DNA from: Flavobacteriales bacterium
GTDB lineage: Bacteria > Bacteroidota > Bacteroidia > Flavobacteriales_D > Parvicellaceae
NCBI GenBank assembly: GCA_026993705.1
Contig: JALWSJ010000405.1
Location: 1-37,645, forward strand
Direction of reading: 5' to 3'
Length of the DNA: 37,645 bases
Position numbers and translations under genes: made by a program. Below, piece by piece: positions 4,156-37,645 of this stretch. Each line of letters opens with the position of its first letter. The stretch's first letter is position 1. The notes under the pieces are model-generated. The model was given only the letters and a program-made list of their open reading frames with translations, was not told the DNA's origin and ran no database searches.

Positions 4156-7100
4156 ATGGCTTATAGAAAAGAATCGAAACCTAGAAGTAGATTTAGCAAA
4201 ATAACTATCAGTCTTGCCTCTCCTGAAATGATTTTAGAAAAGTCTCATGGAGAAGTATTGAAGCCTGAAACAATCAATTATAGAACATACAAGCCTGAGC
4301 GTGATGGATTGTTTTGTGAAAGGATTTTTGGTCCTGTTAAGGATTATGAATGTCATTGTGGGAAATATAAAAGAATCCGTTATAAAGGAATTGTTTGTGA
4401 TAGGTGTGGAGTTGAAGTAACAGAAAAGAAAGTCAGGAGAGAGAGAATGGGACACATTTCACTTGTTGTTCCTGTAGCACATATTTGGTATTTCCGTTCT
4501 TTACCTAACAAAATTGGTTATTTATTAGGTCTTCCGACAAAGAAATTAGATCAGATAATTTATTATGAAAGATATGTAGTTATTAACCCTGCTGGTGTTA
4601 CAAAACCTGACGGAGAAGCTGTTGAATATCTTGATTTTCTAACAGAGGAAGAGTATTTAGATATACTAGATACTTTACCAAGAGAGAATAGAGCTTTAGA
4701 AGATTCTGATCCAAATAAATTCATTGCAAAAATGGGAGCAGAAGCTCTTTATGATTTATTACAACGTTTAGAATTAGATAAATTATCTTATGAATTGCGT
4801 CATAAAGCCAATACTGAAACTTCTCAGCAAAGAAAAAATGAAGCCTTAAAAAGACTTCAAGTAATTGAAGCTTTTAGGGATGCTAATTCAAGAATAGAAA
4901 ATCGTCCGGAATGGATGATTGTTAAAACTGTTCCGGTAATTCCACCGGACTTGAGACCTCTTGTCCCTCTAGATGGTGGGCGTTTTGCTACTTCTGCTAT
5001 GAATGACTTATACAGAAGAGTTATTATCAGAAATAACAGATTGAAAAGATTAATTGAAATCAAGGCTCCAGAAGTAATTCTACGTAACGAGAAGCGTATG
5101 TTGCAAGAGTCAGTTGATTCATTGTTTGACAACTCTAGGAAATCTAGTGCTGTAAAAACAGATAAAAACCGTCCTTTAAAATCTCTTTCTGATAGTCTTA
5201 AAGGTAAATCCGGACGTTTTCGTCAAAACTTATTAGGTAAACGTGTTGATTATTCTGCTCGTTCTGTTATTATTGTTGGGCCTACTCTGAAGTTACATGA
5301 GTGTGGTTTGCCTAAAGATATGGCAGCGGAACTGTTTAAACCTTTTATTATTCGTAAAATAATTGAGAGGGGAATTGTAAAAACAGTAAAGTCAGCTAAA
5401 AAGATAGTAAGTAAAAAAGAATCTATCGTTTGGGATATATTAGAGAACGTGATAAAGGGGCATCCTGTTTTATTAAATAGGGCTCCTACACTTCACCGTC
5501 TTGGTATTCAGGCTTTCCAACCTAAATTAATTGAAGGTAAAGCGATTCAATTACATCCACTTGTATGTACTGCGTTTAATGCGGATTTTGATGGGGATCA
5601 AATGGCGGTTCATTTACCTCTAGGTAATGCTGCTGTTTTAGAGGCTCAAATGTTAATGTTGTCTTCTCATAATATTTTGAATCCTGCCAATGGTGCACCT
5701 ATTACGGTTCCATCTCAGGATATGGTTTTGGGTCTTTACTATATGACAAAACTTAAAAAATCTACTCCTGAAGAAAAAATAAAAGGAGAGGGAATGTCTT
5801 TCTATTCTCCGGAAGAAGTTAAGATTGCATATAATGAAGGTGTTGCAGATTTACATGCACAAATCAAAGTGAAAACTGAAGATTTTGTGAACGGTGAGTA
5901 TGTTACCAAACTAATTGAAACTACTGTAGGTAGAGTCTTATTTAACGAGTTAGTCCCTCGTGAGGCCGGGTATATAAATGATGTTTTAACGAAAAAAGCA
6001 TTAAGAGATATTATTAGTGATATTTTGAAAGTAACCAATGTTCCTACTGCTGCTAAATTTTTGGATGACATTAAAAATTTAGGTTATTATATGGCGTTTA
6101 AAGGTGGTCTTTCTTTTAATTTGGGTGATGTTGTTATCCCTGAAGAAAAAGATGAGATGATTAAAAAAGCCGAAAAACAGGTTGAAGAAGTGATGATGAA
6201 CTATAGTATGGGACTTATCACCAATAATGAGCGTTATAATCAAATTATTGATATTTGGACACATACGAACTCTCGTTTGACTCATATTTTGATGGAAAAC
6301 TTGAAAAAAGACCAACAAGGTTTTAATTCTGTTTATATGATGATGGATTCCGGAGCAAGGGGGTCTAAAGAACAAATTCGTCAGCTGTCAGGTATGAGGG
6401 GCTTGATGGCGAAGCCACAAAAATCAGGAGCAAATGGTGGTCAAGATATTATTGAGAATCCAATTTTATCGAATTTTAAAGAAGGGTTATCAATTTTGGA
6501 ATACTTTATCTCTACTCACGGAGCTCGTAAAGGTTTAGCGGATACGGCATTGAAAACAGCAGATGCCGGTTATTTGACTAGAAGGTTGGTGGATGTTGCT
6601 CAAGATGTTGTTGTTAATGATGAAGACTGCGGAACATTAAGAGGTCTTACGGTAACAGCTTTAAAGAAAAATGAAGATATTGTAGAGAGTTTGTTTGATA
6701 GAATCTTAGGGCGTGTAGCTCTGAATGATATTGAACACCCTGAAACAGGTGAGGTTATTGTTGCAGAAGGAGAAGAAATAAAAGAAGAACACGCTAGAGC
6801 TATTGAGACTGCTGAAATTGAGGAAGTAGAAATACGTTCAGTTCTTACTTGCGAAAAAGAAAGAGGAGTTTGTGCAAAATGTTATGGTCGAAACCTAGCT
6901 ACTGGTCGTCTTGCTGTAAAAGGTGATTCTGTTGGTGTTATTGCTGCTCAGTCTATTGGTGAGCCTGGTACACAGCTTACACTTCGTACGTTCCACGTTG
7001 GTGGTACGGCATCTAATATTGCTGATGAATCTAGTATTAAATCTAAATTTAATGGTAAATTAGATATAGAAGGGTTAAAAACAATTACAAAAGTTGATGA

Positions 7101-10306: not shown

Positions 10307-10328
10307 AAGCTGTGTGTTTTGTTTGACA

Positions 10329-10336
10329 CAAATATA
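10329..10336 (-). promoter_or_regulatory. Candidate Bacteroidetes -7 promoter box (TAnnTTTG) for the LRAT-like/radA pair
   Basis: Plus strand CAAATATA equals TATATTTG on the minus strand, 22 nt upstream of the start codon at 10306. No clear -33 TTTG seen. Confidence 0.3.
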
Positions 10337-10381
10337 GAGTATAGCTCCGTAAAATATTTACGGATGTAATTTAAGGAGATA

Positions 10382-10586
10382 GAGAAAGAATTTTTTCATT
10401 GTCTAAGAAAACTAAATTCCATTTTCTTTGCACTTACCTGACCCGCGTTAGGGATAGGAACGGCATCCTTTTGCCTGCTTGCCTTTATGGCAGGCAAAAG
10501 ATATAGTGGATAGCCCGACCTTTCAAGAGTAAAAAAAATAGTGAGTGTAACGACTATTTTTTTATTCTTGAAAGGGAACGCCCAAA
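10382..10586 (-). repeat. Structured intergenic element, copy A
   Basis: Reverse complement reads TTTGGGCGTTCCC, hairpin 1 (TTTCAAGAAT...ACTCTTGAAA), GGTCGGGCTATCCACTATAT, hairpin 2 (CTTTTGCCTGCC..GGCAGGCAAAAG), GATGCCGTTCCTATCCCTAACGCG, then the tail GAAAATGGAATTTAGTTTTCTTAGAC. The box-1 end lies 9 nt past the stop of the co-oriented CDS 10595..10825. Confidence 0.85.
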
Positions 10587-10594
10587 TACTGATT

Positions 10595-10825
10595 TTACAG
10601 ATTTTTATTCTTCAATACGTTGTTGATGACTTCTTGAGCAGACAGAGCTTCGTTTAGTTTAACGCTTTTTTTTTCGGCATCTTCAATTAGTTGGAGCATC
10701 TCTTGAAATCGGGGCTCGTCTATATTGTCGAAACCTAAATATAAAAGCAAATCGTTTAGTAAATTTTCCCTATTTAAGTGAATAGCCTCTCGTAAGGCAT
10801 CTATTTCCGGTGAATGATCTTCCAT
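10595..10825 (-). CDS. Hypothetical small acidic helical protein
   Basis: 76-aa ORF starting 3 nt after the stop of the upstream ORF 10829..11488 (coupled pair). No recognisable motif. Confidence 0.5.
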   Translation of the reverse strand: MEDHSPEIDALREAIHLNRENLLNDLLLYLGFDNIDEPRFQEMLQLIEDAEKKSVKLNEALSAQEVINNVLKNKNL

Positions 10826-10828
10826 GGC

Positions 10829-11488
10829 TTAATGTTTCAGGTATTGCGTAACTTCCGTAAATCCTTGTTCCTGTATAAAACGGTTGATTTCACTGCTGTT
10901 GGGACGAGCTAAATAGGTTTTTATATTATCAATTTGTAATGAATCTAACGTATTAAATTGTTGAATCTTATCTAAAACTTCTTCGTGGTCAAGGGCAAAA
11001 ATCAAAATTCCTTTCGCTGTTGGATAGAGCAAATACGTTGTGAAATATCCATTGCCTTCCTTCTCGTTCAAGTAGTAAATAATATTTTGTTTTTTCAGTA
11101 CATTTCCGCCGGAAGGTTTATAATAAAGGTCTTTTTGATTGTATATAGCATAGGTTGTATCATTGCTTTTGATATAAGTTAACCCCTCATTTGCCACAAT
11201 TCCATGCAGTTTATTATTCTTAAAAAAGTACTTTCCCTTAGATTTTCGAATGTCTTTTTTGGTTAGTGTAAAGAGCAAACTTTTTTGGGTGTAAATACTA
11301 TCCGAGGTAATCACAAAACGGAATAACGTATCTTTTTCAGCGTAATATTCTCCAATAATAGAAGAGTCAAATTGTAAAGTTGGAGCTACATTGTTGGGTT
11401 GAGGCTCGGCAAAATAAAACGAAGTAAAATCACTTTGTCCGTAGGCAACAAGGGTGAAACAAGTAAATAGAAAAAATAAATAGTTCAT
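10829..11488 (-). CDS. Hypothetical secreted protein
   Basis: 219 aa with an N-terminal signal-like segment MNYLFFLFTCFTLVAYGQ. No recognisable family. Confidence 0.6.
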   Translation of the reverse strand: MNYLFFLFTCFTLVAYGQSDFTSFYFAEPQPNNVAPTLQFDSSIIGEYYAEKDTLFRFVITSDSIYTQKSLLFTLTKKDIRKSKGKYFFKNNKLHGIVANEGLTYIKSNDTTYAIYNQKDLYYKPSGGNVLKKQNIIYYLNEKEGNGYFTTYLLYPTAKGILIFALDHEEVLDKIQQFNTLDSLQIDNIKTYLARPNSSEINRFIQEQGFTEVTQYLKH

Positions 11489-11508
11489 AATTATAAGGTT
11501 TATTATTA

Positions 11509-11699
11509 GGGCGTTCCCATTACGGCATAAAAAAGCGGTTACGTTGCACTACACCACTTTTCAACGCCGTAATGGTCGGGCTATTACTACTCACTCTTTT
11601 TGCCCTCAAAAGGAGGAGGGCAAAAAGGAGTTCAGACACGCCGTTCTATCCCTAACGCGAGTGAAATTGGCGGATAGAAAGTGAGTTTTAGTTTTCATC
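11509..11699 (+). repeat. Structured intergenic element, copy B
   Basis: GGGCGTTCCC, hairpin 1 (ATTACGGC...GCCGTAAT), GGTCGGGCTATTACTACTCACT, hairpin 2 (CTTTTTGCCCTC..GAGGGCAAAAAG), GAGTTCAGACACGCCGTTCTATCCCTAACGCG, then the tail GAAAGTGAGTTTTAGTTTTC. Box 1 begins 21 nt from the start codon of the divergent ORF 10829..11488. Confidence 0.85.
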
Positions 11700-11717
11700 A
11701 AAAAAAGTTCAACAAAT

Positions 11718-12047
11718 CTAACTAAACAATTTTCTCAATACCACTTTTTCAAACTCTCGTTGCAACACCAATTTCGCCAACAAAAATTGTGGCTTTCCAT
11801 CACTGCCGTAAATCTTATTTTGATTCACGTCAATTCGATATAACAAGTTATATAGCTGGGCATCGTTTTCGTTCAATAATTCTTCAAAAAAAAGTACGCA
11901 CTCATGAATCAATTCGTCAATAGTTAAATCCGTAGCAAATAAATTATCAAAGCCGGTCATTTGCAAATCCTTATTCAGTTGACTAATAATTTTAGGCAAT
12001 AATTCAGTACTAAAAGCAACACCTTGATACGGAGAAATAGAAAACAT
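11718..12047 (-). CDS. Hypothetical protein
   Basis: 109-aa ORF with coding-like composition and no recognisable motif. Confidence 0.5.
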   Translation of the reverse strand: MFSISPYQGVAFSTELLPKIISQLNKDLQMTGFDNLFATDLTIDELIHECVLFFEELLNENDAQLYNLLYRIDVNQNKIYGSDGKPQFLLAKLVLQREFEKVVLRKLFS

Positions 12048-12072
12048 AAACGGATTTGAATGACAACAAATA

Positions 12073-12080
12073 CAAAAATA
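12073..12080 (-). promoter_or_regulatory. Candidate -7 promoter box (TAnnTTTG) for ORF 11718..12047
   Basis: Plus strand CAAAAATA equals TATTTTTG on the minus strand, 26 nt upstream of the start codon. Confidence 0.3.
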
Positions 12081-12188
12081 TCATTTTATCGTATAGAAAC
12101 AACTCGATTTGATTAATTTAGTAGCCGTAAGTAAAGAGAAAAGGATGATTTTTATAATCAATCACTCAAAAGAACGAGGAAAAACAAA

Positions 12189-13867: not shown

Positions 13868-16800
13868 ATGTTTAAAAATGTATATATAATTTTTCTTTTG
13901 ATTGGGTTGTCTTCCTATGCCCAATTGGTAGATTACGAGATAAAGATTGTGGAGATAATGGCTACGGCGGATGCCTCTGATTTGCAGGGACAAGATCCTA
14001 CATGGTATATTTGGTTTAAAGATAATGGAACGAATGGTTCAGCTATTACCTCATGGGTGCCGACAGGTTGTATTTATTTAGCTGACAATAATTATGGTTC
14101 ATGGTTTTCAGGTACGCCTAATCAAGGTCCGTCAATTCCTTTTTCGTGGCAAATTGTAACAGGTACAGATGCGACTCAAATCCAAACTCAAATAGAAGGT
14201 TTTGAAAAAGATTGCCCCAACGATTGTAGTTACGACGGTTCGTGTTATTGGGGTACGATAAATGATGATAATCACGATAATCGAGCAAATTCTGGTAATA
14301 TAGATTTTACACTAGATTCTCCTTGTCAATGGAATCAATACGAGATAGCAAATGACGATTATCACGCAAGAGTAGAAATTTATTGGACGTTTAATGCCTT
14401 AGATGCAGGTGAAATAGATGGAGAACAATATGTTTGTATGAATGGCGACCCAACAGTATTGGGTTCTGTACAGGACGGAGAACCGGCAACGTCTAATTTT
14501 GCTAGCTACCAATGGCAACAGTCTTTGGGTTGTACAGGTGCTTTTGTAGATATTCCCGGAGCAACAAATTCCACTTATGACCCTCCGCTGGGTTTGATTC
14601 AAAATACGTGTTTCCGAAGAAAAGTTTTAACTCCTTGTGATGAAGCTATTTCCAACGGAGTTGTAGTGGGGATAGAAGTTCCTTCAGTTGCTGCAACATC
14701 TATAACCGCAACACCGGCTAGTCTTTGTGGAGCGGGTAATGTTACGCTTTCTGTCAATGGCGGAACACTTGGGTCAAATGCCGATTGGTATTGGTATGAT
14801 AACGACCCCAACTCAAACGGAAACCTTATTGGAACGGGAGACCCGTTTACAGTAAATGTTTCTTCTACTTCTACATTTTATGTAAGAGCAGAAGGAAACT
14901 GCTCGGTAACACCTTCAGTTAGTAAGTTAGTAGTCGTAGAAAACCCGTCTAATCCACCAACAACGTTAACACCTTCCAGCTCATCTATTTGCTTAGGTGG
15001 AGGCACAGATTTAACCGCCACCGGAGGAGTGTTGGGCACAAATGCCGTTTATGCATGGTACGACCAAGACCCAAATTTAGGAAGTCCATTGCCTATTCAC
15101 ACGAGTTCTATTCCAACGTATATTGGGGTAAGCCCCGCAACCACGACAACCTACTATGTGCGTATTGAAGGGTGTGATACTACTGCATTGGCTTATACAA
15201 CGGTTTTTGTAACACAACCTTCAACAGCACCGACAGGCATTACCGCTAGCAATACTACGGTTTGTCCTAACGATATGGTTTCTTTAACGGTAACTGGAGG
15301 AAGTTTGGGAGATGGAGCAGATTGGTATTGGTATGAAAACGGCTGTGGAGCTGGTGCAGCCATAGGTACAGGAGCTACAATAAATGTCAATCCTTTAGTA
15401 ACGACTAACTATTTTGTACGTGCCGAAGGTACTTGTAATATGACGAATTGCATGAACATTACCATTGTTGTAGATGATGAGTCAACTCCGCCTGCATCCG
15501 TTGTATCTTCAGCTACAAATGTTTGTCCAGGTGATGTTAGTGTATTATCGGTTGTAGGTGGGAATTTAGGTACAGGGGCAGATTGGTATTGGTATGCATC
15601 TTCTTGTGGAGGAACTCCCGTAGGCACGGGAAGCAGTATAAGTGTAAACCCCACAGTAACGACCGATTACTTCGTTCGTGCAGAAGGTAGTTGTAATACT
15701 ACTTCTTGTGCAACCGTAACTATAAATGTCAAAACTATTTCAACAGATGCTACGGGGATAACTGTATCAAACAATAATATTTGTTCAGGAACCGCTACAA
15801 CATTAAATGTTTCAGGAGGTAGTTTGGGAGCCGGAGCAACGTGGGAATGGTACACAGGTTCTTGCGGAGGTGCTTACTTAGGGAGTGGTGCAACTCTTTC
15901 TGTTTCTCCTACGGCTACAACTATATATTACGTGAGAGCTGAAGGAGATTGTAATACTTCAGGTTGTGTAAATGCAACGGTAACAGTTCTGCCGACTTCC
16001 ACATTGCCGACCTCTATTTTAGTTTCTAATCCCAATGTTTGCCCTAATTCTTCAACCGATTTGACCGTTGTAGGAGGGAATTTAGTTAACGGGGATAATT
16101 GGACGTGGTATGAGGGAGGATGTGGTTTAGGAACGCCTATCGGAACAGGAAACACTATAAGCGTTTCTCCTTCATCTGCAACAGAATATTTTGTAAGAGG
16201 AGAGGGGACATGTGGGTTTACAAATTGTGCAAGTGTAATGGTGAATACAGATGAAGTATCTACAGCACCAAATGAAATAGTAGCTACAAGCACAGCTCTT
16301 TGTGTGGGACAATCTACTGTATTGTCTGTGTCGGGAGGGAATCTTGGTTCGGGAGCTACATGGCAATGGTATTCTGGTTCGTGTGGCAGTAATCCTGTAG
16401 GAAGTGGTAATTCTATAAGTGTAGCCCCAAGTGCTACAACAACCTATTACGTGCGAGGTGAAGGGAATTGTGGAAACTCTTCTTGCGTAAATATCACAAT
16501 TGATGTGGGGGCAGGAGTAGATGCTCCTACTTCAGCAAATGTTTCTACCGATAATATTTGTCCAGGAGCAACAACAACACTAACAGTGGTAGGCTCTACC
16601 TTACCAAGTGATTACACTTGGGTATGGTACACAGGTGCTTGTGGTGCTGTACCGGTGGGAGTGGGAACTTCATTAGACGTTTCTCCTACATTTACCGAAA
16701 CTTATTTTGTTCGTGCAGTCGGAACGTGTGGAGCAACATCATGTCAAAGTGTTACTGTAAATGTTCAAAATGGAAGTGTAGCAGCAACAGGAGTACAAGT

Positions 16801-17755
16801 GTCGAATAATAATTTCTGTCAAGGAGAAACAACAACATTGACCGTAGTCGGAGGAAATTTAGTATCAGGAGCCGATTGGATGTGGTACGAAAACAGTTGC
16901 GGAGGTAGTCCGCCGGTAGGAACAGGGACAAGTGTAACACTTACCCCCAATAACTCAACTACCTATTATGTAAGAGCCGAAGGAGGAACATGTGGAAGTA
17001 CCGAATGTGCAAGTGCTTTCGTAAGTGTAATTGAAACAATCGTACATTGTAATCCGTTTGATACGCTCTGCGGAATAGGATTGCCGTTTGCTTTGGAAGG
17101 AGGAGAACCCGATGGAGGTGTCTATTCAGGAACAGGAGTAGCAAATGGAATTTTCAATCCGGAGGTTGCGGGAGTTGGCACGCATACAATTACTTATACC
17201 TATATTTCTCCAATCAGTGGTTGTACCAATTCTGTCGATAAAGAAATAGTCGTAAAACCCTCGGACTTAACTGCAACAATAGTTACGGAAGAGTTCCCGT
17301 GTTCACAAGGAGGAATAACATTAAGTGTCCTAGCAAAAAATAATAAGGGGTTTTTAGATTACTTGTGGTCGAACGGTTCTTATGAAGAAAGTATCAATTT
17401 TGTAGAAGCAGGAACATATTCTGTGCAAATCAGAGACAACGAAGGTTGTGTAGCTAAATCCGATGAAGTAGTAATTACCGATGAAATGGAATGTATCGAT
17501 ATACCTAACACATTTACACCAAACGGAGATGGAAAAAACGATACATGGAATCTTGATTTCGCCGATTATGAAAGTGCCTCGCTAACCGTATTTTCCAAAT
17601 GGGGAAGAGAAGTCTATAAAACATCTTCTTTAGAAATTCATTGGAACGGTACAACAGCATCGGGAACTCATTTGCCTGCAGGAGTTTATTATTATGTGTT
17701 AGAACTAAACGGAGGCGAAAGAAAACAAAACGGAACAATAACATTACTGCGATGA
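13868..17755 (+). CDS. Large cell-surface adhesin-like protein with nine Ig-like (CHU_C-associated type) repeats and a T9SS type-B C-terminal sorting domain
   Basis: 1295 aa. It has a signal peptide and a Cys-rich N-terminal region. Nine repeats of about 87 aa follow, with the pattern C..G....L.V.GG.LG.GA.W.WY.G.CGG..VG.G.S..V.P..TT.Y.VRAEG.C. The C-terminus IPNTFTPNGDGKNDTW...GVYYYVLEL...GTITLLR matches the gliding-motility-associated (CHU_C / type B) CTD pattern. Confidence 0.85.
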   Translation: MFKNVYIIFLLIGLSSYAQLVDYEIKIVEIMATADASDLQGQDPTWYIWFKDNGTNGSAITSWVPTGCIYLADNNYGSWFSGTPNQGPSIPFSWQIVTGTDATQIQTQIEGFEKDCPNDCSYDGSCYWGTINDDNHDNRANSGNIDFTLDSPCQWNQYEIANDDYHARVEIYWTFNALDAGEIDGEQYVCMNGDPTVLGSVQDGEPATSNFASYQWQQSLGCTGAFVDIPGATNSTYDPPLGLIQNTCFRRKVLTPCDEAISNGVVVGIEVPSVAATSITATPASLCGAGNVTLSVNGGTLGSNADWYWYDNDPNSNGNLIGTGDPFTVNVSSTSTFYVRAEGNCSVTPSVSKLVVVENPSNPPTTLTPSSSSICLGGGTDLTATGGVLGTNAVYAWYDQDPNLGSPLPIHTSSIPTYIGVSPATTTTYYVRIEGCDTTALAYTTVFVTQPSTAPTGITASNTTVCPNDMVSLTVTGGSLGDGADWYWYENGCGAGAAIGTGATINVNPLVTTNYFVRAEGTCNMTNCMNITIVVDDESTPPASVVSSATNVCPGDVSVLSVVGGNLGTGADWYWYASSCGGTPVGTGSSISVNPTVTTDYFVRAEGSCNTTSCATVTINVKTISTDATGITVSNNNICSGTATTLNVSGGSLGAGATWEWYTGSCGGAYLGSGATLSVSPTATTIYYVRAEGDCNTSGCVNATVTVLPTSTLPTSILVSNPNVCPNSSTDLTVVGGNLVNGDNWTWYEGGCGLGTPIGTGNTISVSPSSATEYFVRGEGTCGFTNCASVMVNTDEVSTAPNEIVATSTALCVGQSTVLSVSGGNLGSGATWQWYSGSCGSNPVGSGNSISVAPSATTTYYVRGEGNCGNSSCVNITIDVGAGVDAPTSANVSTDNICPGATTTLTVVGSTLPSDYTWVWYTGACGAVPVGVGTSLDVSPTFTETYFVRAVGTCGATSCQSVTVNVQNGSVAATGVQVSNNNFCQGETTTLTVVGGNLVSGADWMWYENSCGGSPPVGTGTSVTLTPNNSTTYYVRAEGGTCGSTECASAFVSVIETIVHCNPFDTLCGIGLPFALEGGEPDGGVYSGTGVANGIFNPEVAGVGTHTITYTYISPISGCTNSVDKEIVVKPSDLTATIVTEEFPCSQGGITLSVLAKNNKGFLDYLWSNGSYEESINFVEAGTYSVQIRDNEGCVAKSDEVVITDEMECIDIPNTFTPNGDGKNDTWNLDFADYESASLTVFSKWGREVYKTSSLEIHWNGTTASGTHLPAGVYYYVLELNGGERKQNGTITLLR
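14678..17035 (+). repeat. Tandem coding repeats (nine Ig-like units of about 261 nt)
   Basis: Protein-level periodicity. The exact 16-mer GATTGGTATTGGTATG recurs at 14783, 15320 and 15581, and the last two are exactly 261 nt apart. Confidence 0.8.
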
Positions 17756-18717
17756 TGAACAATAAATTCTTCATATTGATAATGTTATTGATAAGCCTTA
17801 ACTGTAAACAACAAAGCTATGCACAGCAAATCGTAATGAATAGCCAATACATGATTAACAGTTTTGTCTTAAATCCGGCTGTAGCAGGAACAAAAACCTA
17901 CGCCCCGTTAGTGTTAAGTGCTCGTCGTCAATGGATGGGCATACGTGAAGCACCGGTGGCACAACATCTCTCTTATCACACCTCTATTAATAAATACTTA
18001 GGAGTAGGCGGAGCAATTTTTAATGATGTTGCCGGGCCTGCAAGAAGAACAGGATTATTGGTAGCACTTTCAACACAAGTAGAAACATCAAAATACGACC
18101 GTGTTTCATTTGGGTTGGCAACTTCAATGAGCCAATATATGATAAGAAAACAGTATTTAATTACGGAAGAAGATAACGACAACACCGTACTGAATTATAC
18201 TTCTAACAGGCTCATACCAGACATAGCATTCGGAATAAAATTCTACGGCGACCGCTACCAAGTAGGGTTATCCGGATTTAATATCATACAATCAAAAGTA
18301 GATTTAACCGATATAATGACCACTGTAACCAATAAGCTCGAACGAACGTTTTATCTAAACGGAAGTTACATTATCCCCCTTGGAAAACATAGCCCTCTAA
18401 TCACATTAGAACCGTCAGCCGTTCTACGCTATATGTCTACCGCACCCTTGCAATTTGATATAAACCTAAGAGCTATATACAACAAAAGGCTGTGGGCGGG
18501 TATATCCTATCGCTTTAAAGATGCAACAGCCTTGATGGTTGGATTCTCTACCTCAAAAATAGGAATCAGTTACTCTTATGATATCAGTATGTCCGGTTTG
18601 TCAAAGTATAATTCAGGTTCACACGAAGTAACATTAACCTTACGTCACAAAAATAAAAGAGGGAACTTTCCTGCAGGAGGTCAACGTTTTAATACGTATG
18701 ATTGTCCAACATTTTAA
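17752..18717 (+). CDS. PorP/SprF-family type IX secretion system membrane protein
   Basis: Signal peptide, then QQIVMNSQYMINSFVLNPAVAG (the PorP/SprF N-terminal signature) and a beta-rich C-terminus. The ATG at 17752 overlaps the adhesin stop (ATGA). The upstream ORF extension from 17641 is Arg/Lys-rich junk overlapping the adhesin. Confidence 0.8.
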   Translation: MMNNKFFILIMLLISLNCKQQSYAQQIVMNSQYMINSFVLNPAVAGTKTYAPLVLSARRQWMGIREAPVAQHLSYHTSINKYLGVGGAIFNDVAGPARRTGLLVALSTQVETSKYDRVSFGLATSMSQYMIRKQYLITEEDNDNTVLNYTSNRLIPDIAFGIKFYGDRYQVGLSGFNIIQSKVDLTDIMTTVTNKLERTFYLNGSYIIPLGKHSPLITLEPSAVLRYMSTAPLQFDINLRAIYNKRLWAGISYRFKDATALMVGFSTSKIGISYSYDISMSGLSKYNSGSHEVTLTLRHKNKRGNFPAGGQRFNTYDCPTF

Positions 18718-18948
18718 TGAGAATGATTTGGGCGTTCCCATTACAGCATAAAAAAGCAGTTTCGTTGCACTACACTACTTTTTAACGCCGTAATGGTCGG
18801 GCTATCCGCTATATCTTTTGCCCTCCAAAAGGAGGGAGGACAAAAGGATGCCGCTCCTATCCCTAACACGGAACAGGTGAATGCAAAGAAAACGGAGTTT
18901 AGTTTTCTTAGACGATGAAAAATTCTTTTGCATAGCCCCAGCTATGGG
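18716..18948 (+). repeat. Structured intergenic element, copy C (longest, with extended tail)
   Basis: AATGAGAATGATTTGGGCGTTCCC, hairpin 1 (ATTACAGC...GCCGTAAT), GGTCGGGCTATCCGCTATAT, hairpin 2 (CTTTTGCCCTCC..GGAGGACAAAAG), GATGCCGCTCCTATCCCTAACACG, then the tail GAAAACGGAGTTTAGTTTTCTTAGACGATGAAAAATTCTTTTGCATAGCCCCAGCTATGGG. It starts on the stop codon of the PorP/SprF gene. Confidence 0.85.
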
Positions 18949-19003
18949 AAATAATTTTGAAGAAGTATAAGGCAAATAAAAGCGTTTTATTGTGCTCAGA
19001 TGT

Positions 19004-19034
19004 TCCGTGTTAGGGATTGTATCCCTAACACGGA
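19004..19034. repeat. Perfect 31-nt palindrome built from the element's terminal box
   Basis: TCCGTGTTAGGGAT-TGT-ATCCCTAACACGGA. The 14-mer ATCCCTAACACGGA also ends copy C at 18859-18872. Confidence 0.9.
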
Positions 19035-19128
19035 TACAGAAGAATTATCAATACAAAAAAAACATAGGGATTATTCTACAAGCAACCAAAAATAATTAAC
19101 TTCGTCTTTTCTAAAAATTAATATACAT

Positions 19129-21630
19129 ATGAAGAAGTATCTTTTAATATTGAATATACTGTTTATAAGTTTGGTCTCGTTGGGTCAGAATCTAGTTCCT
19201 AATCCTAGTTTTGAAACAATAAGTAACTGTAACGACACTGTTTCGCCTAGTGTAGCCACTAGTAAAATAACTCCATGGGTTATCCCGACAGATGGTTCAG
19301 CTGATTCTTTTCATTCTTCTTGTGGTTCGGGTTGTATGGGAACGTCAACTCCATGTAATATGATATCCTATCAACCGACACATTCAGGAGTTGGTTATGC
19401 AGGTTTAATAGCTGCATCAGGAGCTTTTGGAACGATTGATAATAATAGAGAATATTTGCAAGTTCAATTGACTTCTCCTTTGGTAGCAGGACAAGATTAT
19501 TGTGTGGAGTTTTATGCTTCTTTAGCAGCTAACCCTGCTGCGGTTATTATTGCAATTAATTCACTTGGAGCATATTTGTCATCTACCCCCGTTACAGCTA
19601 GTGGAACTAATCCTCTTAATGTTACTCCGCAGGTTGTTTCTAGTTCCTATGTGTCCGACACGGTAGGATGGACATTGATTCAGTCCACTTTCACAGCGAC
19701 TGGAGGAGAACAATATATAACAATAGGGAATTTTAATGATGCTAGTTCTACTTCTACACAAACTGTTTATTCTCCCCAACCGGGAGGTCCAATGTTAAGT
19801 TATTATTTTATTGATGATGTTTCTGTTACTTCCGGAGCTTGTTCATCATCACCAGCCTGCGATTCAACCATAAACCCGTTCGGTCCTTTTTGTTCTACAG
19901 ATGTTCCTAGTAACCTAACGGCGGTAACACCTAATGGAACATGGAGTGGAACAGGTATAACTGATGCTAACGCAGGAACATTTGACCCTGCTACAGCAGG
20001 TATCGGGACGCATCAAATTACTTATACGGCACCTTGTGGTTCGTCGAATACAATTGATGTGGTTGTAAATGATTGTTCCACTATTACGGCTAGTTTTACG
20101 GCATCCAATACAAACTTATGTGTTGCCGATTGTATTAGCTTTACCAATACAAGCTCCGGTGTTGGTAATAGTGCAACGTACAGTTGGTCGTTTGCAGGAG
20201 CAACTCCAAGTACTTCAACCGATGTCAACCCGACCAATATTTGTTATCCTGCTACAGGAACGTATGACGTTACGTTGACCGTTACGGAAAATGGAAACTC
20301 CGATGATTCAGTGATGACGGGCTATGTTACCGTTGTTTCTTGTTCAACACCAATAATAGATTTTACCCCTTCGGATGATACGATTTGTCAAACCAATTGT
20401 ATCACGTTTACTAACAATAGCGGAGGTGGTTCAATCGGTAACTTTGCGTGGAGTTTTACAGGTGGAACACCATCTAGTGCTTTAGGAGCAAATCCTCCAC
20501 AAGTTTGTTATGATACACCAGGTAATTATACCGTTACATTGGTGGCAGTTGATGCTTCAAACAATGTGTTAGGGCAAAAAGATACAACCATTGTAGTAGA
20601 ATCTTGCCCGTTACCAACGGCTAATTTTACCGTAAACAATCCTAATATATGCGAAGAAGGGTGTGTAAGTTTTACCGATCAAAGTTTTGGTATGGTTGGA
20701 ACAGCGACTTATGAGTGGCAGTTCCCAGGGGCAAACACAACAACAAGTAATGCTCAAAACCCTTCGGGAATTTGTTACACCAATATAGGAACTTACGATG
20801 TTACATTAAGTGTAACCGATAATAATGGGACAGCTACAATAACAATAACCGATGCGGTAGTTGTTAGTGAGTGTGACCCTCCTGTTCCGGTGTTTACATT
20901 GCCGAGTAATGTAATCTGTACAGGGCAATGCATTAATTTTACCAATGAAAGCACCAATGCAGATTCTTATGAATGGATTTTTGAAGGAGGTTTCCCTGGT
21001 GGTTCAACCGATGAAAATCCAACCAATATTTGTTTTGAGTCAGAGGGAACTTTTGATATTCAATTGATTGCTTTTAATACGTTGACTTCCGATACGCTTC
21101 ATCATACGCTTACAGTTGCTCAACCTCCTTCTGTAACGGCTAGTGATGATGTTACAATATTTGAAGGAACAAACACCTTATTAACAGTTGAAACCGATGG
21201 CAGCACTTATCTATGGAGTCCCTCAGAAACTTTATCTTGCGATGACTGTATGTCAACGGTTGCAGAACCCGATTCTACTACCTTGTACACAATAACAGTT
21301 ACTGCAGATAACGGTTGTGCAGTAACCGATAGTGTGTTGGTTACAGTTGTTGAGGTAACGGCAATTGGAGTTCCTTCAGCTTTTTCTCCAAATGGAGACA
21401 AAGTGAACGATGTTTTGTATGTAGAAGGGGCGGGTATAGAAAAAATGAACTTTATAGTCTATAACCGATACGGAGAAAAAATATTTGAATCGAGTAAAAA
21501 ATCCTTTGGTTGGGATGGTAAGTACAAGGGGAAACCCGAAAACCCGGGAGTTTTTGTCTATACGTTGGAATATGTATTAAGAAATGGCGAAACAGGAGTC
21601 TTAAAAGGAAACGTAACACTTGTTAAGTAA
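19129..21630 (+). CDS. PKD-repeat cell-surface protein with a T9SS type-B C-terminal sorting domain
   Basis: 833 aa. It has a signal peptide and the N-terminal NLVPNPSFE... domain common in Bacteroidetes secreted proteins. Four PKD-like units follow (F..S....C....C..FTN.S.....Y.W.F.G..P..S...NP..ICY...G.Y.VTL). The C-terminus VPSAFSPNGDKVNDVLYVEG...GVFVYTLEY...GNVTLVK is type-B CTD-like. Confidence 0.85.
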   Translation: MKKYLLILNILFISLVSLGQNLVPNPSFETISNCNDTVSPSVATSKITPWVIPTDGSADSFHSSCGSGCMGTSTPCNMISYQPTHSGVGYAGLIAASGAFGTIDNNREYLQVQLTSPLVAGQDYCVEFYASLAANPAAVIIAINSLGAYLSSTPVTASGTNPLNVTPQVVSSSYVSDTVGWTLIQSTFTATGGEQYITIGNFNDASSTSTQTVYSPQPGGPMLSYYFIDDVSVTSGACSSSPACDSTINPFGPFCSTDVPSNLTAVTPNGTWSGTGITDANAGTFDPATAGIGTHQITYTAPCGSSNTIDVVVNDCSTITASFTASNTNLCVADCISFTNTSSGVGNSATYSWSFAGATPSTSTDVNPTNICYPATGTYDVTLTVTENGNSDDSVMTGYVTVVSCSTPIIDFTPSDDTICQTNCITFTNNSGGGSIGNFAWSFTGGTPSSALGANPPQVCYDTPGNYTVTLVAVDASNNVLGQKDTTIVVESCPLPTANFTVNNPNICEEGCVSFTDQSFGMVGTATYEWQFPGANTTTSNAQNPSGICYTNIGTYDVTLSVTDNNGTATITITDAVVVSECDPPVPVFTLPSNVICTGQCINFTNESTNADSYEWIFEGGFPGGSTDENPTNICFESEGTFDIQLIAFNTLTSDTLHHTLTVAQPPSVTASDDVTIFEGTNTLLTVETDGSTYLWSPSETLSCDDCMSTVAEPDSTTLYTITVTADNGCAVTDSVLVTVVEVTAIGVPSAFSPNGDKVNDVLYVEGAGIEKMNFIVYNRYGEKIFESSKKSFGWDGKYKGKPENPGVFVYTLEYVLRNGETGVLKGNVTLVK
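20074..21123 (+). repeat. Four tandem PKD-domain coding repeats
   Basis: Protein periodicity of about 88 aa across roughly aa 316-665 of the 833-aa product. Confidence 0.7.
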
Positions 21631-21637
21631 AATAGTA

Positions 21638-22645
21638 ATGAGAGGAATAATAATATTTTTATGGGTGTTGTTCATTTGTTTAGGACAAGTTGACGCACAA
21701 CAAGATAGGCACTTTAGTATGTTTAATGCTTCTCCTATAATGCTAAATCCTGGGGCGGCAGGTCTTTTTCCTGGAAATGTGCAATTGTTTACAAATTATA
21801 GAAGTCAGTGGTCGTCTATTTCCCCCAACTTGTTTACAACTACGTCGGGAACGGTAGATGCAAAATTTTATAAAAAGAAAGGTTATTATTTTGCTGGAGG
21901 GTTAAATTTTTTTAACGATGTTGCAGGTACTAGTTTAATGAAAACAGGTGTATATAATTTAAGTTTGAGTTATGGCATAGAGGTCAATGAAAACCAATAT
22001 TTAGCTTTCGGTGTTCAACCTTCGTATTTTCAACGTTCCATGGAAATGGGAACGCTGACCTGGGGAAATCAATGGACGGGAGAGCAGTTTAATATTTTAC
22101 AATCATCCGGGGAAGCTAAATTTGCCCAAAGCATAGGTAAATTTGATTTGAATACCGGCGTGTATTATTATGGGCAAGTTCAAGATAATATCCTTATTTC
22201 TGTTGGTGGTTCTGTCCATCATGTAACCAGACCGAATGTTGGTTTGTTTACCACGGACGAGAAATTATATAGAAAGTATTTGGTGAACGCATATATGGAA
22301 TATGGTGTAAGTCATACCAAGTTTTATATCGACCCGAGTATGTATGCTTTTTTTCAAGGACCTAACAAATCGATTGCCGTGGGTACGGATTTTAAATATA
22401 TGATAAAGGAAAGTTCTAAATATACAGGTTATTATGATGAGACTTCATTCTTAGTGGGTATGTATTATCGTTCAAATGATTCTTTTTATACTAAGGTGGG
22501 TCTTAATTGGAGCGGTTTTTCTTTTGGTGCTGCTTACGATATTAATATTTCTTCTCTTTCTATTGCAACCAATGGATTGGGAGGAATGGAATTTTTCCTT
22601 CGATATAGGATTGGTTTTAAAGGGCGTTATAGTGGATTTAAGTAA
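21638..22645 (+). CDS. PorP/SprF-family type IX secretion system membrane protein (second copy)
   Basis: MRGIIIFLWVLFICLGQVDAQQDRHFSMFNASPIMLNPGAAG matches the PorP/SprF N-terminal signature. The ATG at 21638 is preferred over the TTG at 21620, which overlaps the upstream stop. Confidence 0.8.
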   Translation: MRGIIIFLWVLFICLGQVDAQQDRHFSMFNASPIMLNPGAAGLFPGNVQLFTNYRSQWSSISPNLFTTTSGTVDAKFYKKKGYYFAGGLNFFNDVAGTSLMKTGVYNLSLSYGIEVNENQYLAFGVQPSYFQRSMEMGTLTWGNQWTGEQFNILQSSGEAKFAQSIGKFDLNTGVYYYGQVQDNILISVGGSVHHVTRPNVGLFTTDEKLYRKYLVNAYMEYGVSHTKFYIDPSMYAFFQGPNKSIAVGTDFKYMIKESSKYTGYYDETSFLVGMYYRSNDSFYTKVGLNWSGFSFGAAYDINISSLSIATNGLGGMEFFLRYRIGFKGRYSGFK

Positions 22646-23077: not shown

Positions 23078-23130
23078 TCTAATTTTATTTTTATTCCCAA
23101 ACTGTAAATAACTTTTTCAAAAAATATTTT

Positions 23131-23305
23131 CATAATGGGAGCTATGCAAAGATTTTTTTTTATTCTGCGTTAGGGATAAGAACGGCATCCTTTTGCCCTC
23201 CCTCCTTTTGGAGGGCAAAAGATATAGTGGATAGCCCGACCCTCATTTGCAGATGAAGTGTTTCGCGTGAGCGATATTCTTCATTTGCAAATGAGGGGAA
23301 CGCCC
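23131..23305 (-). repeat. Structured intergenic element, copy D
   Basis: Reverse complement reads TTTGGGCGTTCCC, hairpin 1 (CCTCATTTGCAAATGAAG..CTTCATCTGCAAATGAGG), GTCGGGCTATCCACTATAT, hairpin 2 (CTTTTGCCCTCC..GGAGGGCAAAAG), GATGCCGTTCTTATCCCTAACGCA, then a short tail with TCTTTGCATAGCTCCC. Confidence 0.85.
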
Positions 23306-23315
23306 AAAAAATAAT

Positions 23316-23323
23316 TAACTTTG
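23316..23323 (+). promoter_or_regulatory. Candidate -7 promoter box (TAnnTTTG) for rarA
   Basis: TAACTTTG lies 27 nt upstream of the rarA ATG, inside a 21-23 nt motif also found upstream of the CDS at 19129. Confidence 0.35.
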
Positions 23324-23349
23324 TCCTACACAAATTTAAGACCGATATA

Positions 23350-33719: not shown

Positions 33720-33787
33720 TTTCTTTTTTTTGTTAATCTGTTTATATTTTTTTATTTCAATTCTTCTGAGTAAAACTTATATATTGT

Positions 33788-33969
33788 TCAAGAAAACTAA
33801 ACTCCGTTTTCTTCTCGCTCATTTTCTCCGCGTTAGGGATAGGAGTGGCATCCTTTTGGGTTGTTGCGTATATGCAACCCAAAAGATATAACGGATAGCC
33901 CGACCTATTTTTGCAAAACAAACGTTTCGCGATAGCGATATGTTTGTTTTGCAAAAATAGGGAACGCCC
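33788..33969 (-). repeat. Structured intergenic element, copy E
   Basis: Reverse complement reads TTAGGGCGTTCCC, hairpin 1 (a perfect 20-bp stem CCTATTTTTGCAAAACAAAC/GTTTGTTTTGCAAAAATAGG), TCGGGCTATCCGTTATAT, hairpin 2 (CTTTTGGGTTG..CAACCCAAAAG), GATGCCACTCCTATCCCTAACGCG, then the tail GAAAACGGAGTTTAGTTTTCTTG. Box 1 lies 11 nt past the stop of the co-oriented CDS 33981..34475. Confidence 0.85.
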
Positions 33970-33980
33970 TAATTAGTTTC

Positions 33981-37375: not shown

Positions 37376-37520
37376 AATGATGATTTGGGCGATTCCATTA
37401 CGGCATTAAAAAGTAGTTTCGTTGCACTACACCACTTTTTAACGGCGTAATGGTCGGGCTATCACTACTCGCTTTTTTTGCTTGCAAACAGCAAGCAAAC
37501 AAAAAAGAGCTCAAACATAC
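37376..37520 (+). repeat. Structured intergenic element, copy F (3' part missing)
   Basis: AATGATGATTTGGGCGATTCC, hairpin 1 (ATTACGGC...GGCGTAAT), GGTCGGGCTATCACTACTCG, hairpin 2 (CTTTTTTTGCTTGC-AAACA-GCAAGCAAACAAAAAAG), AGCTCAAACATAC. It then breaks off before box 3, and GTAAGCG... follows. Confidence 0.8.
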
Positions 37521-37645
37521 GTAAGCGTACGGTAAAGTACATGTTATTCGTTATTGAGTTCTTTCCAATTTTGAGGAAATAACTCAAATAATTTATTTGC
37601 TTTATGTTCTGGAATACGGTTCAATACATCAAGTAGCCATTTATA
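37521..37645 (-). mobile_element. Terminal part of an IS66-family-like insertion sequence running off the window
   Basis: The outer end reads GTAAGCGTACGGTAAAG; IS66-family inverted repeats characteristically start with GTAA(GCG). The 3' end of a transposase-like ORF stops 23 nt inside this terminus. Confidence 0.5.
37544..37645 (-). CDS. C-terminal fragment of an IS66-family-like transposase (partial, continues beyond the window)
   Basis: Minus-strand translation is YKWLLDVLNRIPEHKANKLFELFPQNWKELNNE*. It resembles the conserved IS66 TnpC C-terminus (Y...L.DVL.RI..H....I.ELLP.NW). Confidence 0.5.
   Translation of the reverse strand, partial: YKWLLDVLNRIPEHKANKLFELFPQNWKELNNE

Follow-up and report, generated by a model that had tools for sequence, protein, structure and literature searches.

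What fills the long intergenic spacers of JALWSJ010000405.1, a 37,645-nt contig of a Flavobacteriales bacterium (GCA_026993705.1), and how might it be maintained there? The preliminary description of this contig, which was analyzed at its full length and is referred to as the window, had proposed from its letters that an element with a fixed order of parts (three conserved boxes, separated by hairpins 1 and 2 and followed by an AT-rich tail with a third hairpin) occurs in six copies, A to F, and that every complete spacer longer than 200 nt holds exactly one. Both proposals hold. All six copies align, and each of the five such spacers, as defined from the open reading frame (ORF) table and Pfam assignments (10307-10828, 11489-12188, 18718-19128, 23078-23349 and 33720-33980), carries a single copy, while copy F sits in a spacer cut by the window end (37332-end). 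Without the element, the spacers of copies C, D and E would measure only ~65-105 nt. Pattern counts in the window are well above expectation for box3 (TATCCCTAACRCG; 10 matches against 0.94 expected), box2 (GGTCGGGCTAT; 7 against 0.15) and box1 (TTGGGCGTTCCC; 7 against 1.44), and none of these counts was reached by any of 100 shuffles.

The preliminary description had not placed the element in a named family, had asked for Rfam motifs such as Flavo-1 to be excluded and had counted a significant Rfam hit as a refuting result. An Rfam search gave just such a hit: copies A, C, D and E match Flavo-1 (RF01705) over the full model (positions 1-76) with 57.7-62.5 bits and E-values of ~1e-10 to 1e-11, against a gathering score of 42 bits. 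Copy B stays below that score (27.5 bits), and copy F gives no Rfam match. The matched segment spans box3, hairpin 2 and box2 on the complement of the strand that the preliminary description had taken as canonical, which is thus opposite both to the Rfam strand and to the strand with the best-conserved structure. All six are Flavo-1 copies, enlarged and of a mosaic form specific to this lineage, and belong to a catalogued family rather than a new one. Derivation from some other structural RNA was also considered, and a permissive Rfam scan of one element returned Flavo-1 only.

Flavo-1 was defined purely computationally, with 239 representatives, and its authors comment only on its taxonomic range (Weinberg et al. 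2010, PMC2864571). A transcriptome study of F. psychrophilum reports 128 copies, transcribed in sense, in antisense or not at all, and draws no functional conclusion from them (PMC9723704); neither of these two papers states a function. The family nonetheless ranks among the most abundant "sRNA" (small RNA) families in Rfam (PMC9029176). The window copies share with the published motif its internal loops, its taxonomic range and its multi-copy habit, and the copies studied here show the long hairpin, the conserved internal loops and the variable-length tip, with covariation support. They also differ from it. Running from GCGUUA to a point 4 nt past GCCCGACC, the published alignment leaves out box1 and the two helices described below as P1 and P3, and the family description lacks the tail unit and the box3 palindrome found in the window lineage.

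To delimit the structural unit, we scanned one genome per species for the box2...box3 pattern and obtained at least 103 stretches; most copy counts given below rest on these fetched loci. The pattern occurs in many genera of the Flavobacteriaceae, in the Sphingobacteriales, in the Chitinophagaceae and in one "Fibrobacter" metagenome-assembled genome (MAG), and the nearest relative of the window is the Flavobacteriales MAG JALTUD01, 95-98% identical over rarA. Of 115 copies, drawn from many genera, 109 carry box1, (T/A)GGGCGTT(A/C/T)CC, just upstream of box2, the remaining six being cut by contig ends or slightly diverged. Box1 is part of the Flavo-1 unit, which extends from box1 to box3. What separates the CC of box1 from the GG of box2 is hairpin 1, a variable-length insert measuring 3-7 nt in most genera (e.g. 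ACAAG) as opposed to 50-56 nt in the window lineage. The GCGTT of box1 pairs with the AACGC of box3 to form helix P1, in which the compensatory pairs CCGTT/AACGG (once) and GTGTT/AACAC (twice) are observed. The earlier claim that the two ends are not inverted repeats of each other is therefore correct insofar as long terminal inverted repeats were not found, but it overlooks this 5-bp helix and its compensatory changes.

When RNAalifold was applied to 45 short-insert copies, it returned unguided a three-way junction composed of P1, P2 (the published Flavo-1 hairpin, with purine-rich internal loops) and P3 (hairpin 1). The extended covariance model built from this alignment, R1, finds copies A to E again in the window. 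In the fetched loci it matches 116 copies, almost all of them end to end. Across the 116 copies, whose alignment was fitted to the model so that pairing counts are biased in its favor, 95.0% of cells are paired, compared to 78.4% in shuffles and 33-51% in slid controls; double changes occur at 18 of 22 pairs, and P1 is 98.6% paired, with double changes at three of its five pairs. P2 pairs exchange GC, AU and CG, as at pair 37:200, where 57 copies have AU and 53 have UA. Single-sequence folds of copies A, B, D and E independently give the junction (z = -6.4 to -9.8). A divergent Flavo-1 copy lies at 6380-6499 of locus L086; its first P2 pairs are flipped from GGG...CCC to CCC...GGG, matching the Rfam consensus. 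The Rfam threshold misses copy B, which has a "type b" P2, as well as "class G" copies, a common P2 variant, one of which (L072) rises from 37.5 bits with Rfam to 105 bits under the extended model. The "Fibrobacter sp." MAG contig (L011) holds three G+C-rich elements with box1 (e.g. rc 3105 and rc 5007), two of which have another box2 (e.g. GGCGGGTGCT), pointing either to a wider family in the FCB group or to a mis-binned contig.

The copies in the window and their parts are as follows, with strands given as the Rfam strand:

10372..10585, plus strand: copy A; Rfam Flavo-1 60.8 bits at 10436-10524, R1 58.9 bits; box3 10444-10456, P2 with hairpin 2 10457-10509, box2 10510-10520, long P3 arm (hairpin 1) 10521-10573, box1 10574-10585, truncated tail ~10372-10443; minimum-free-energy fold is the three-way junction (z = -7.2).
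11507..11697, minus strand: copy B; Rfam 27.5 bits, R1 30.3 bits (E = 3e-6); box1 11507-11518, box2 11574-11584, box3 11647-11659, tail truncated at ~11697; type-b P2 helix CACTACTCACTC ... GGAGTTCAGACACGCCGTTC; the minus-strand gene at 10829-11488 has its start codon 19 nt from the box1 side; fold z = -6.4.
18728..19034, minus strand: copy C, full composite; Rfam 60.1 bits at 18791-18871; box1 18728-18739, P3 arm 18740-18794, box2 18795-18805, P2 with hairpin 2 18806-18857, box3 18858-18870; box1 GGGCG begins 12 nt past the stop codon of a PorP/SprF gene.
18871-19005: tail of copy C, ~135 nt, including hairpin 3 and the hairpin CATAGC-CCCA-GCTATG.
19006-19032: box3 palindrome of copy C, CGTGTTAGGGAT-TGT-ATCCCTAACACG.
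23080..23307, plus strand: copy D; Rfam 57.7 bits, R1 59.2 bits, with P1 and P3 recognized across a 52-nt insert; box3 23166-23178, box2 23231-23241, P3 arm 23242-23295, box1 23296-23307; box1 side 43 nt upstream of the rarA start codon.
~23080-23165: tail remnant of copy D, with an internal deletion.
33775..33971, plus strand: copy E; Rfam 62.5 bits, R1 57.8 bits; box3 33829-33841, box2 33895-33905, P3 arm 33906-33959, box1 33960-33971, truncated tail ~33775-33828; box1 GGGCG begins 11 nt past the accB stop codon; fold z = -9.8.
37385..37530, minus strand: copy F, decayed; placed by alignment and sequence, matched by neither Rfam nor R1; box1 variant TTGGGCGATTCC 37385-37396, then a P3 arm whose sequence type is that of copies B and C, box2 37452-37462 and, after it, the 5' arm of a type-b P2.

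Copies C and F differ from their first description. Copy C had been ended at 18948 and continues to ~19034, through the tail and then the palindrome. Copy F, described as truncated, is indeed incomplete, but what it lacks is ~12 nt including the CTATCCC of box3, and it looks like a decayed copy.

The structure is better kept on one strand. In 92 of 109 cores the Rfam strand gives the stabler fold, and so it does in all five intact window copies, by 7-18 kcal/mol. Hairpin 1 has 74 G.U pairs on the Rfam strand and 10 on the other; at the tip of hairpin 2 the figures are 48 and 28. Model pairs contain 55 G.U against 33 A.C, with 19 of these A.C at one position in one subfamily, and the other mismatches are mostly purine-purine on the Rfam strand. 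All these counts are inflated by copies related by descent, although their direction is consistent. Mutational bias was rejected as the source of the asymmetry, since coding-strand C-to-T changes would push it the other way. In many cases the strand that keeps its structure better goes untranscribed, as expected if selection acts on single-stranded DNA or on a master-copy RNA and not on local transcripts.

The sequences flanking the junction vary by lineage. Outside the window lineage, similarity ends directly after TAACGC. In the window and in MAG JALTUD01, box3 is followed by a conserved unit of ~135-165 nt with hairpin 3 and a CATAGC-N4-GCTATG hairpin, ending in the palindrome CG(T/C)GTTAGGGAT-N3-ATCCCTAAC(G/A)C, formed by box3 and its own complement. 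Tail and palindrome are kept in at least ten MAG copies, and the tail unit is repeated in tandem at locus L034. The AT-rich tail that had been counted as part of the element does not belong to it across the phylum; it constitutes a separate unit confined to the window lineage. In Flavobacterium, other modules accompany the core at non-orthologous loci (palindrome CTTTGTCAAAGTTTnAAACTTTGACAAAG and a terminator-like hairpin), and homology again ends exactly at TAACGC. Two comparisons have this hexamer as their exact homology endpoint, that of L027 with L049 and that of L064 with the window; in the latter, the ortholog of copy D is 98% identical and homology stops precisely at the end of box3. 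At the non-orthologous loci L027 (~5210-5310) and L049 (reverse strand), a perfect palindrome, CTTTGTCAAAGTTT(T/C)AAACTTTGACAAAG, stands directly upstream of Flavo-1 together with a hairpin, AATCCGTT...CGGATTTTT, and looks like a second, Flavobacterium-specific repeat family travelling with it. The modular, multi-copy, hairpin-bearing layout that had been likened to BOX, ERIC and BIME elements is confirmed here as a conserved core with lineage-specific modules, as in BIMEs.

With respect to neighboring genes, the strand opposite to that of Rfam runs in the same direction as the flanking gene in 30 cases and in the opposite direction in 25, and copies lie between convergent genes more often than between divergent ones (20 vs. 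9). When tail-bearing copies are excluded, the box1 side is within 35 nt of a stop codon in 26 of 44 copies, compared to 6 of 38 for the box3 side. An ORF ends just upstream of 39 copies; in 23 of these, no more than 15 nt separate its stop codon from the GGGCG of box1, and five copies themselves form the stop codon TAG, from a T and the AG of an AGGGCG variant. Copies near stops place the non-Rfam strand in the mRNA. The tables of the F. psychrophilum study show the same adjacency of box1 to a stop codon in 6 of 13 sampled copies; for features 0001, 0006 and 0011, which are among the six, the signal is ~10-11 on the operon strand and near background (~4-5) on the Rfam strand (PMC9723704).

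Signs of amplification and of persistence are both present. Copy number varies widely between genomes; among the matches listed, one MAG contributes at least 26 contigs and one Aquimarina genome 14 stretches, and 1.16 Mb of other Bacteroidota loci yielded no Flavo-1 match. Many MAG copies carry the long hairpin-1 insert of copies B, C and F in almost the same sequence, and modules have been reshuffled from copy to copy. The spacer that holds a copy in L086 is empty in L037 and L095, and copies in trp operons lie at differing positions. A copy downstream of a LolE-like gene, on the other hand, keeps its position and orientation in three Flavobacterium species at 73-78% nucleotide identity, and two further sites, one behind an M20 dipeptidase gene and one upstream of a saccharopine-dehydrogenase-like gene, hold copies in different genera, with boxes intact and with hairpin tips that differ in sequence and still pair. 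At one M20 locus, L054 (~5712-6990), an inserted TonB-like gene has on either side of it the dipeptidase gene's 3' end with its terminator, present in duplicate, and Flavo-1 comes after the second terminator. No clean pair of filled and empty sites was found between close relatives: a RarA metagenome scan for orthologous empty sites returned only relatives at 60-65% identity, none of them with copies, and an exact-protein look-up of accB returned a single 3.4-kb contig that ends at the repeat. Locus L104 and many JALTUD01 contigs (e.g. L023, L033, L044 and L076) likewise end within or beside copies, leaving the assemblies fragmented.

Flavo-1 is a chromosomal, high-copy intergenic repeat under structural constraint, present in Flavobacteriia and in some other Bacteroidota. 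Taken together, these data suggest that it is a REP/BIME-like dispersed repeat that would be maintained via a folded single strand and would have side effects on mRNA, a reading to which we assign a probability of roughly 45%. The invariant foot GCGTTAGGGAT/ATCCCTAACGC, which the window lineage also carries as a bare palindrome, would be the site for a conserved trans-acting protein. This putative protein may act on one folded strand and thereby copy or homogenize elements, with hairpin tips and flanking modules free to vary and to give rise to mosaics. The window copies would be passengers that lengthen spacers, and in copies C and E, with box1 11-12 nt past a stop codon, the structure probably influences how translation terminates or how stable the 3' end of the mRNA is, by analogy with E. 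coli REPs, which are summarized as stalling ribosomes when they lie within 15 nt of a stop codon (Liang et al. 2015, in PMC12306157).

REP, BIME and REPIN elements of Proteobacteria are likewise high-copy extragenic imperfect palindromes with strand-specific mismatches that form mosaics, occur in both orientations, often lie within 15 nt of a stop codon and are vertically inherited with long persistence. In contrast, Flavo-1 has no GT[AG]G or CGTC head, its foot being GCGTTAGGGAT / ATCCCTAACGC, and it is larger (~95-150 nt) and branched, folding into a three-way junction. REP/BIME is thus the closest functional analogue, yet Flavo-1 is not a member of that family. BOX, ERIC and Correia elements also combine conserved boxes with variable modules and are co-transcribed with neighboring genes, but they are unrelated in sequence and limited to a genus or family, whereas the Flavo-1 boxes are identical across Bacteroidota classes. 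Integron attC sites (R'' RYYYAAC at the 5' side and R' GTTRRRY at the 3' side) were discarded, given that the order is reversed in Flavo-1 (GCGTT...AACGC) and that its flanks are housekeeping genes with no integrase; so were a terminator, with the T-run on the wrong side, and a tRNA-like CCA tail, with about one quarter of copies ending in CCCT and not CCCA.

Several observations weigh against maintenance as a REP/BIME-like repeat. No transposase or Y1-type gene was found beside ~116 copies (~0.7 Mb around copies), clustering of 339 neighboring proteins for a recurrent neighbor gene returned housekeeping families only, and the genes between paired copies are ordinary, with no candidate enzyme among them; neither these nor the neighbors of the ~116 copies include a RAYT (Y1) gene flanked by Flavo-1. 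RAYT subclass 2.6, from the Bacteroidetes, was examined as a partner and set aside, its published REP-like flanking hairpins being unrelated in sequence to the Flavo-1 boxes. To this must be added the missing filled/empty pair between close relatives and the absence of visible target duplications. Furthermore, boxes are identical across classes of the phylum and some copies keep position and orientation across genera, a degree of conservation above that usual for selfish repeats, which fits a host function. Finally, the 3:3 mix of orientations within 37 kb may argue against transposition of the replication-strand-tied IS200/IS605 type.

An alternative explanation is that Flavo-1 is a structured noncoding RNA family expressed from the Rfam strand, acting in trans or in cis in 5' leaders, with the DNA copies as paralogous genes. 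Strong covariation, purine-rich internal loops conserved in sequence and the strand bias of G.U and purine-purine pairs are consistent with such RNAs, and copies B, D and F have their Rfam-strand 3' end 19-54 nt upstream of a start codon. In F. psychrophilum, the Rfam-strand array signals of flavo-1_0002, 0003, 0007, 0010, 0012 and 0013 increase jointly on agar and late in growth, and these features share expression clusters B546/C143 with a tRNA (PMC9723704, table S3). These co-rising signals could reflect a stable RNA species or cross-hybridization among repeats. The remaining evidence makes this explanation unlikely. No positioned TAnnTTTG promoter precedes the Rfam strand (11 scattered matches in 107 copies), a candidate promoter in the tail of copy C, TTTG-N21-TAATTTTG, is not conserved among tails, and the structure is not followed by a U-tract terminator. 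Copies are oriented at random with respect to genes, and stop-abutting copies put the other strand in the mRNA, with the Rfam strand at array background in the three features cited above. Neither a promoter nor a terminator of their own, which along with a discrete transcript would mark independent trans-acting sRNA genes, was found, and many copies are silent on the Rfam strand in the arrays; the authors of the F. psychrophilum study are of the same view (PMC9723704).

Flavo-1 could instead be a host-selected cis element that, placed just past stop codons and in either orientation, protects mRNA 3' ends, insulates cistrons from one another or modulates translation termination. The proximity of box1 to stop codons, the enrichment at gene 3' ends and between convergent genes, and the copies that keep position and orientation across genera while their differing tips still pair all speak for this explanation, as do the REP precedent and the 3'UTR (3' untranslated region) and intra-operon transcripts that run through copies in F. 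psychrophilum (PMC9723704). Nevertheless, its probability appears low. The mRNA strand at stop-proximal copies is the less well-paired one, many copies lie in divergent promoter regions or are untranscribed, and the wide variation in copy number, together with near-identical inserts within a lineage, indicates recent amplification rather than site-by-site selection.

Mobilization as a classical MITE (a miniature transposable element with inverted repeats) by the DDE transposase of an insertion sequence family located elsewhere in the genome is highly improbable. Flavo-1 is indeed short, noncoding, high-copy and sharply bounded, and many copies have ends of the form TTTG(GG)CGTT ... AACGCAAA, a weak interrupted inverted repeat. 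However, MITEs are recognized by terminal inverted repeats of at least ~10 bp and a target duplication, whereas the perfect repeat here is 5-6 bp and, as the preliminary description had noted in setting the element apart from MITEs, no flanking direct repeats were seen, at the ends of either the core or the composite. The same description had linked no transposase to five of the six copies, which is correct, while implying one for the sixth; the ORF table and Pfam assignments show no transposase gene anywhere in the window. No longer element bounded by box1 and box3 was found, the surroundings of the fetched copies contain neither a transposase nor the TnpA(Y1)/TnpB genes of IS200/IS605, and no Flavo-1 copies were matched on plasmids, in phages or in IMG/VR. 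Moreover, phylum-wide sequence identity is unlike that of MITE families. A SINE-like retro-mobile RNA, in which folded RNA from one or a few Rfam-strand master copies is copied into A/T-rich sites by a host reverse transcriptase, would account for one-strand folding selection irrespective of local transcription, for the A-rich 3' flank on the Rfam strand (CCCAAA...) abutting T-runs and terminators and for the precise 5' end at GCGTTAGGG, but it is improbable in the extreme, with no reverse transcriptase linked to any copy, no target duplications seen, no demonstrated variable-length poly(A), A/T-rich flanks that are normal in these genomes and no known bacterial precedent.

The genes among which the window copies lie are, in order, rpoB, rpoC, radA, a C92-like peptidase gene, two pairs of a type IX secretion system cargo gene and a PorP gene, rarA, a histidine kinase gene, a peroxiredoxin gene, mnmE, a YceI-like gene, accB and others. 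The two tandem pairs (13868-22645) each consist of a large CHU_C (type IX secretion) cargo gene followed by a PorP/SprF gene: Ig_7-CHU_C at 13868-17755 with PorP at ~17751-18717, and PKD-CHU_C at 19129-21630 with PorP at 21620-22645. Copy C is positioned between them. The listed TTG start of the first PorP/SprF ORF overlaps the upstream 1295-aa gene by 115 nt (17641-17755), and the ATG at 17751, giving a 321-aa product, is the likelier start.

In practical terms, Flavo-1 repeats inflate spacers, break metagenome assemblies and mark synteny breakpoints. For the family itself, the analysis adds a closed three-way junction that includes box1, arms that behave as expandable cassettes, and a preferred placement after stop codons that puts the non-Rfam strand in the mRNA while structural selection still favors the Rfam strand. 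The larger closed unit, its expandable arms, its stop-adjacent placement and the selection on the Rfam strand argue against the annotation of Flavo-1 copies as sRNA genes, which is probably misleading. It is possible, if doubtful, that Flavo-1 is the substrate of a putative Bacteroidota-wide enzyme recognizing the folded single strand through its three-way junction and GCGTTAGGGAT/ATCCCTAACGC foot. If so, this would account for structural selection that is strand-specific yet independent of local transcription, and Flavo-1 would be an ancient, vertically inherited replicator comparable to REPIN-RAYT, with another fold and another protein partner.

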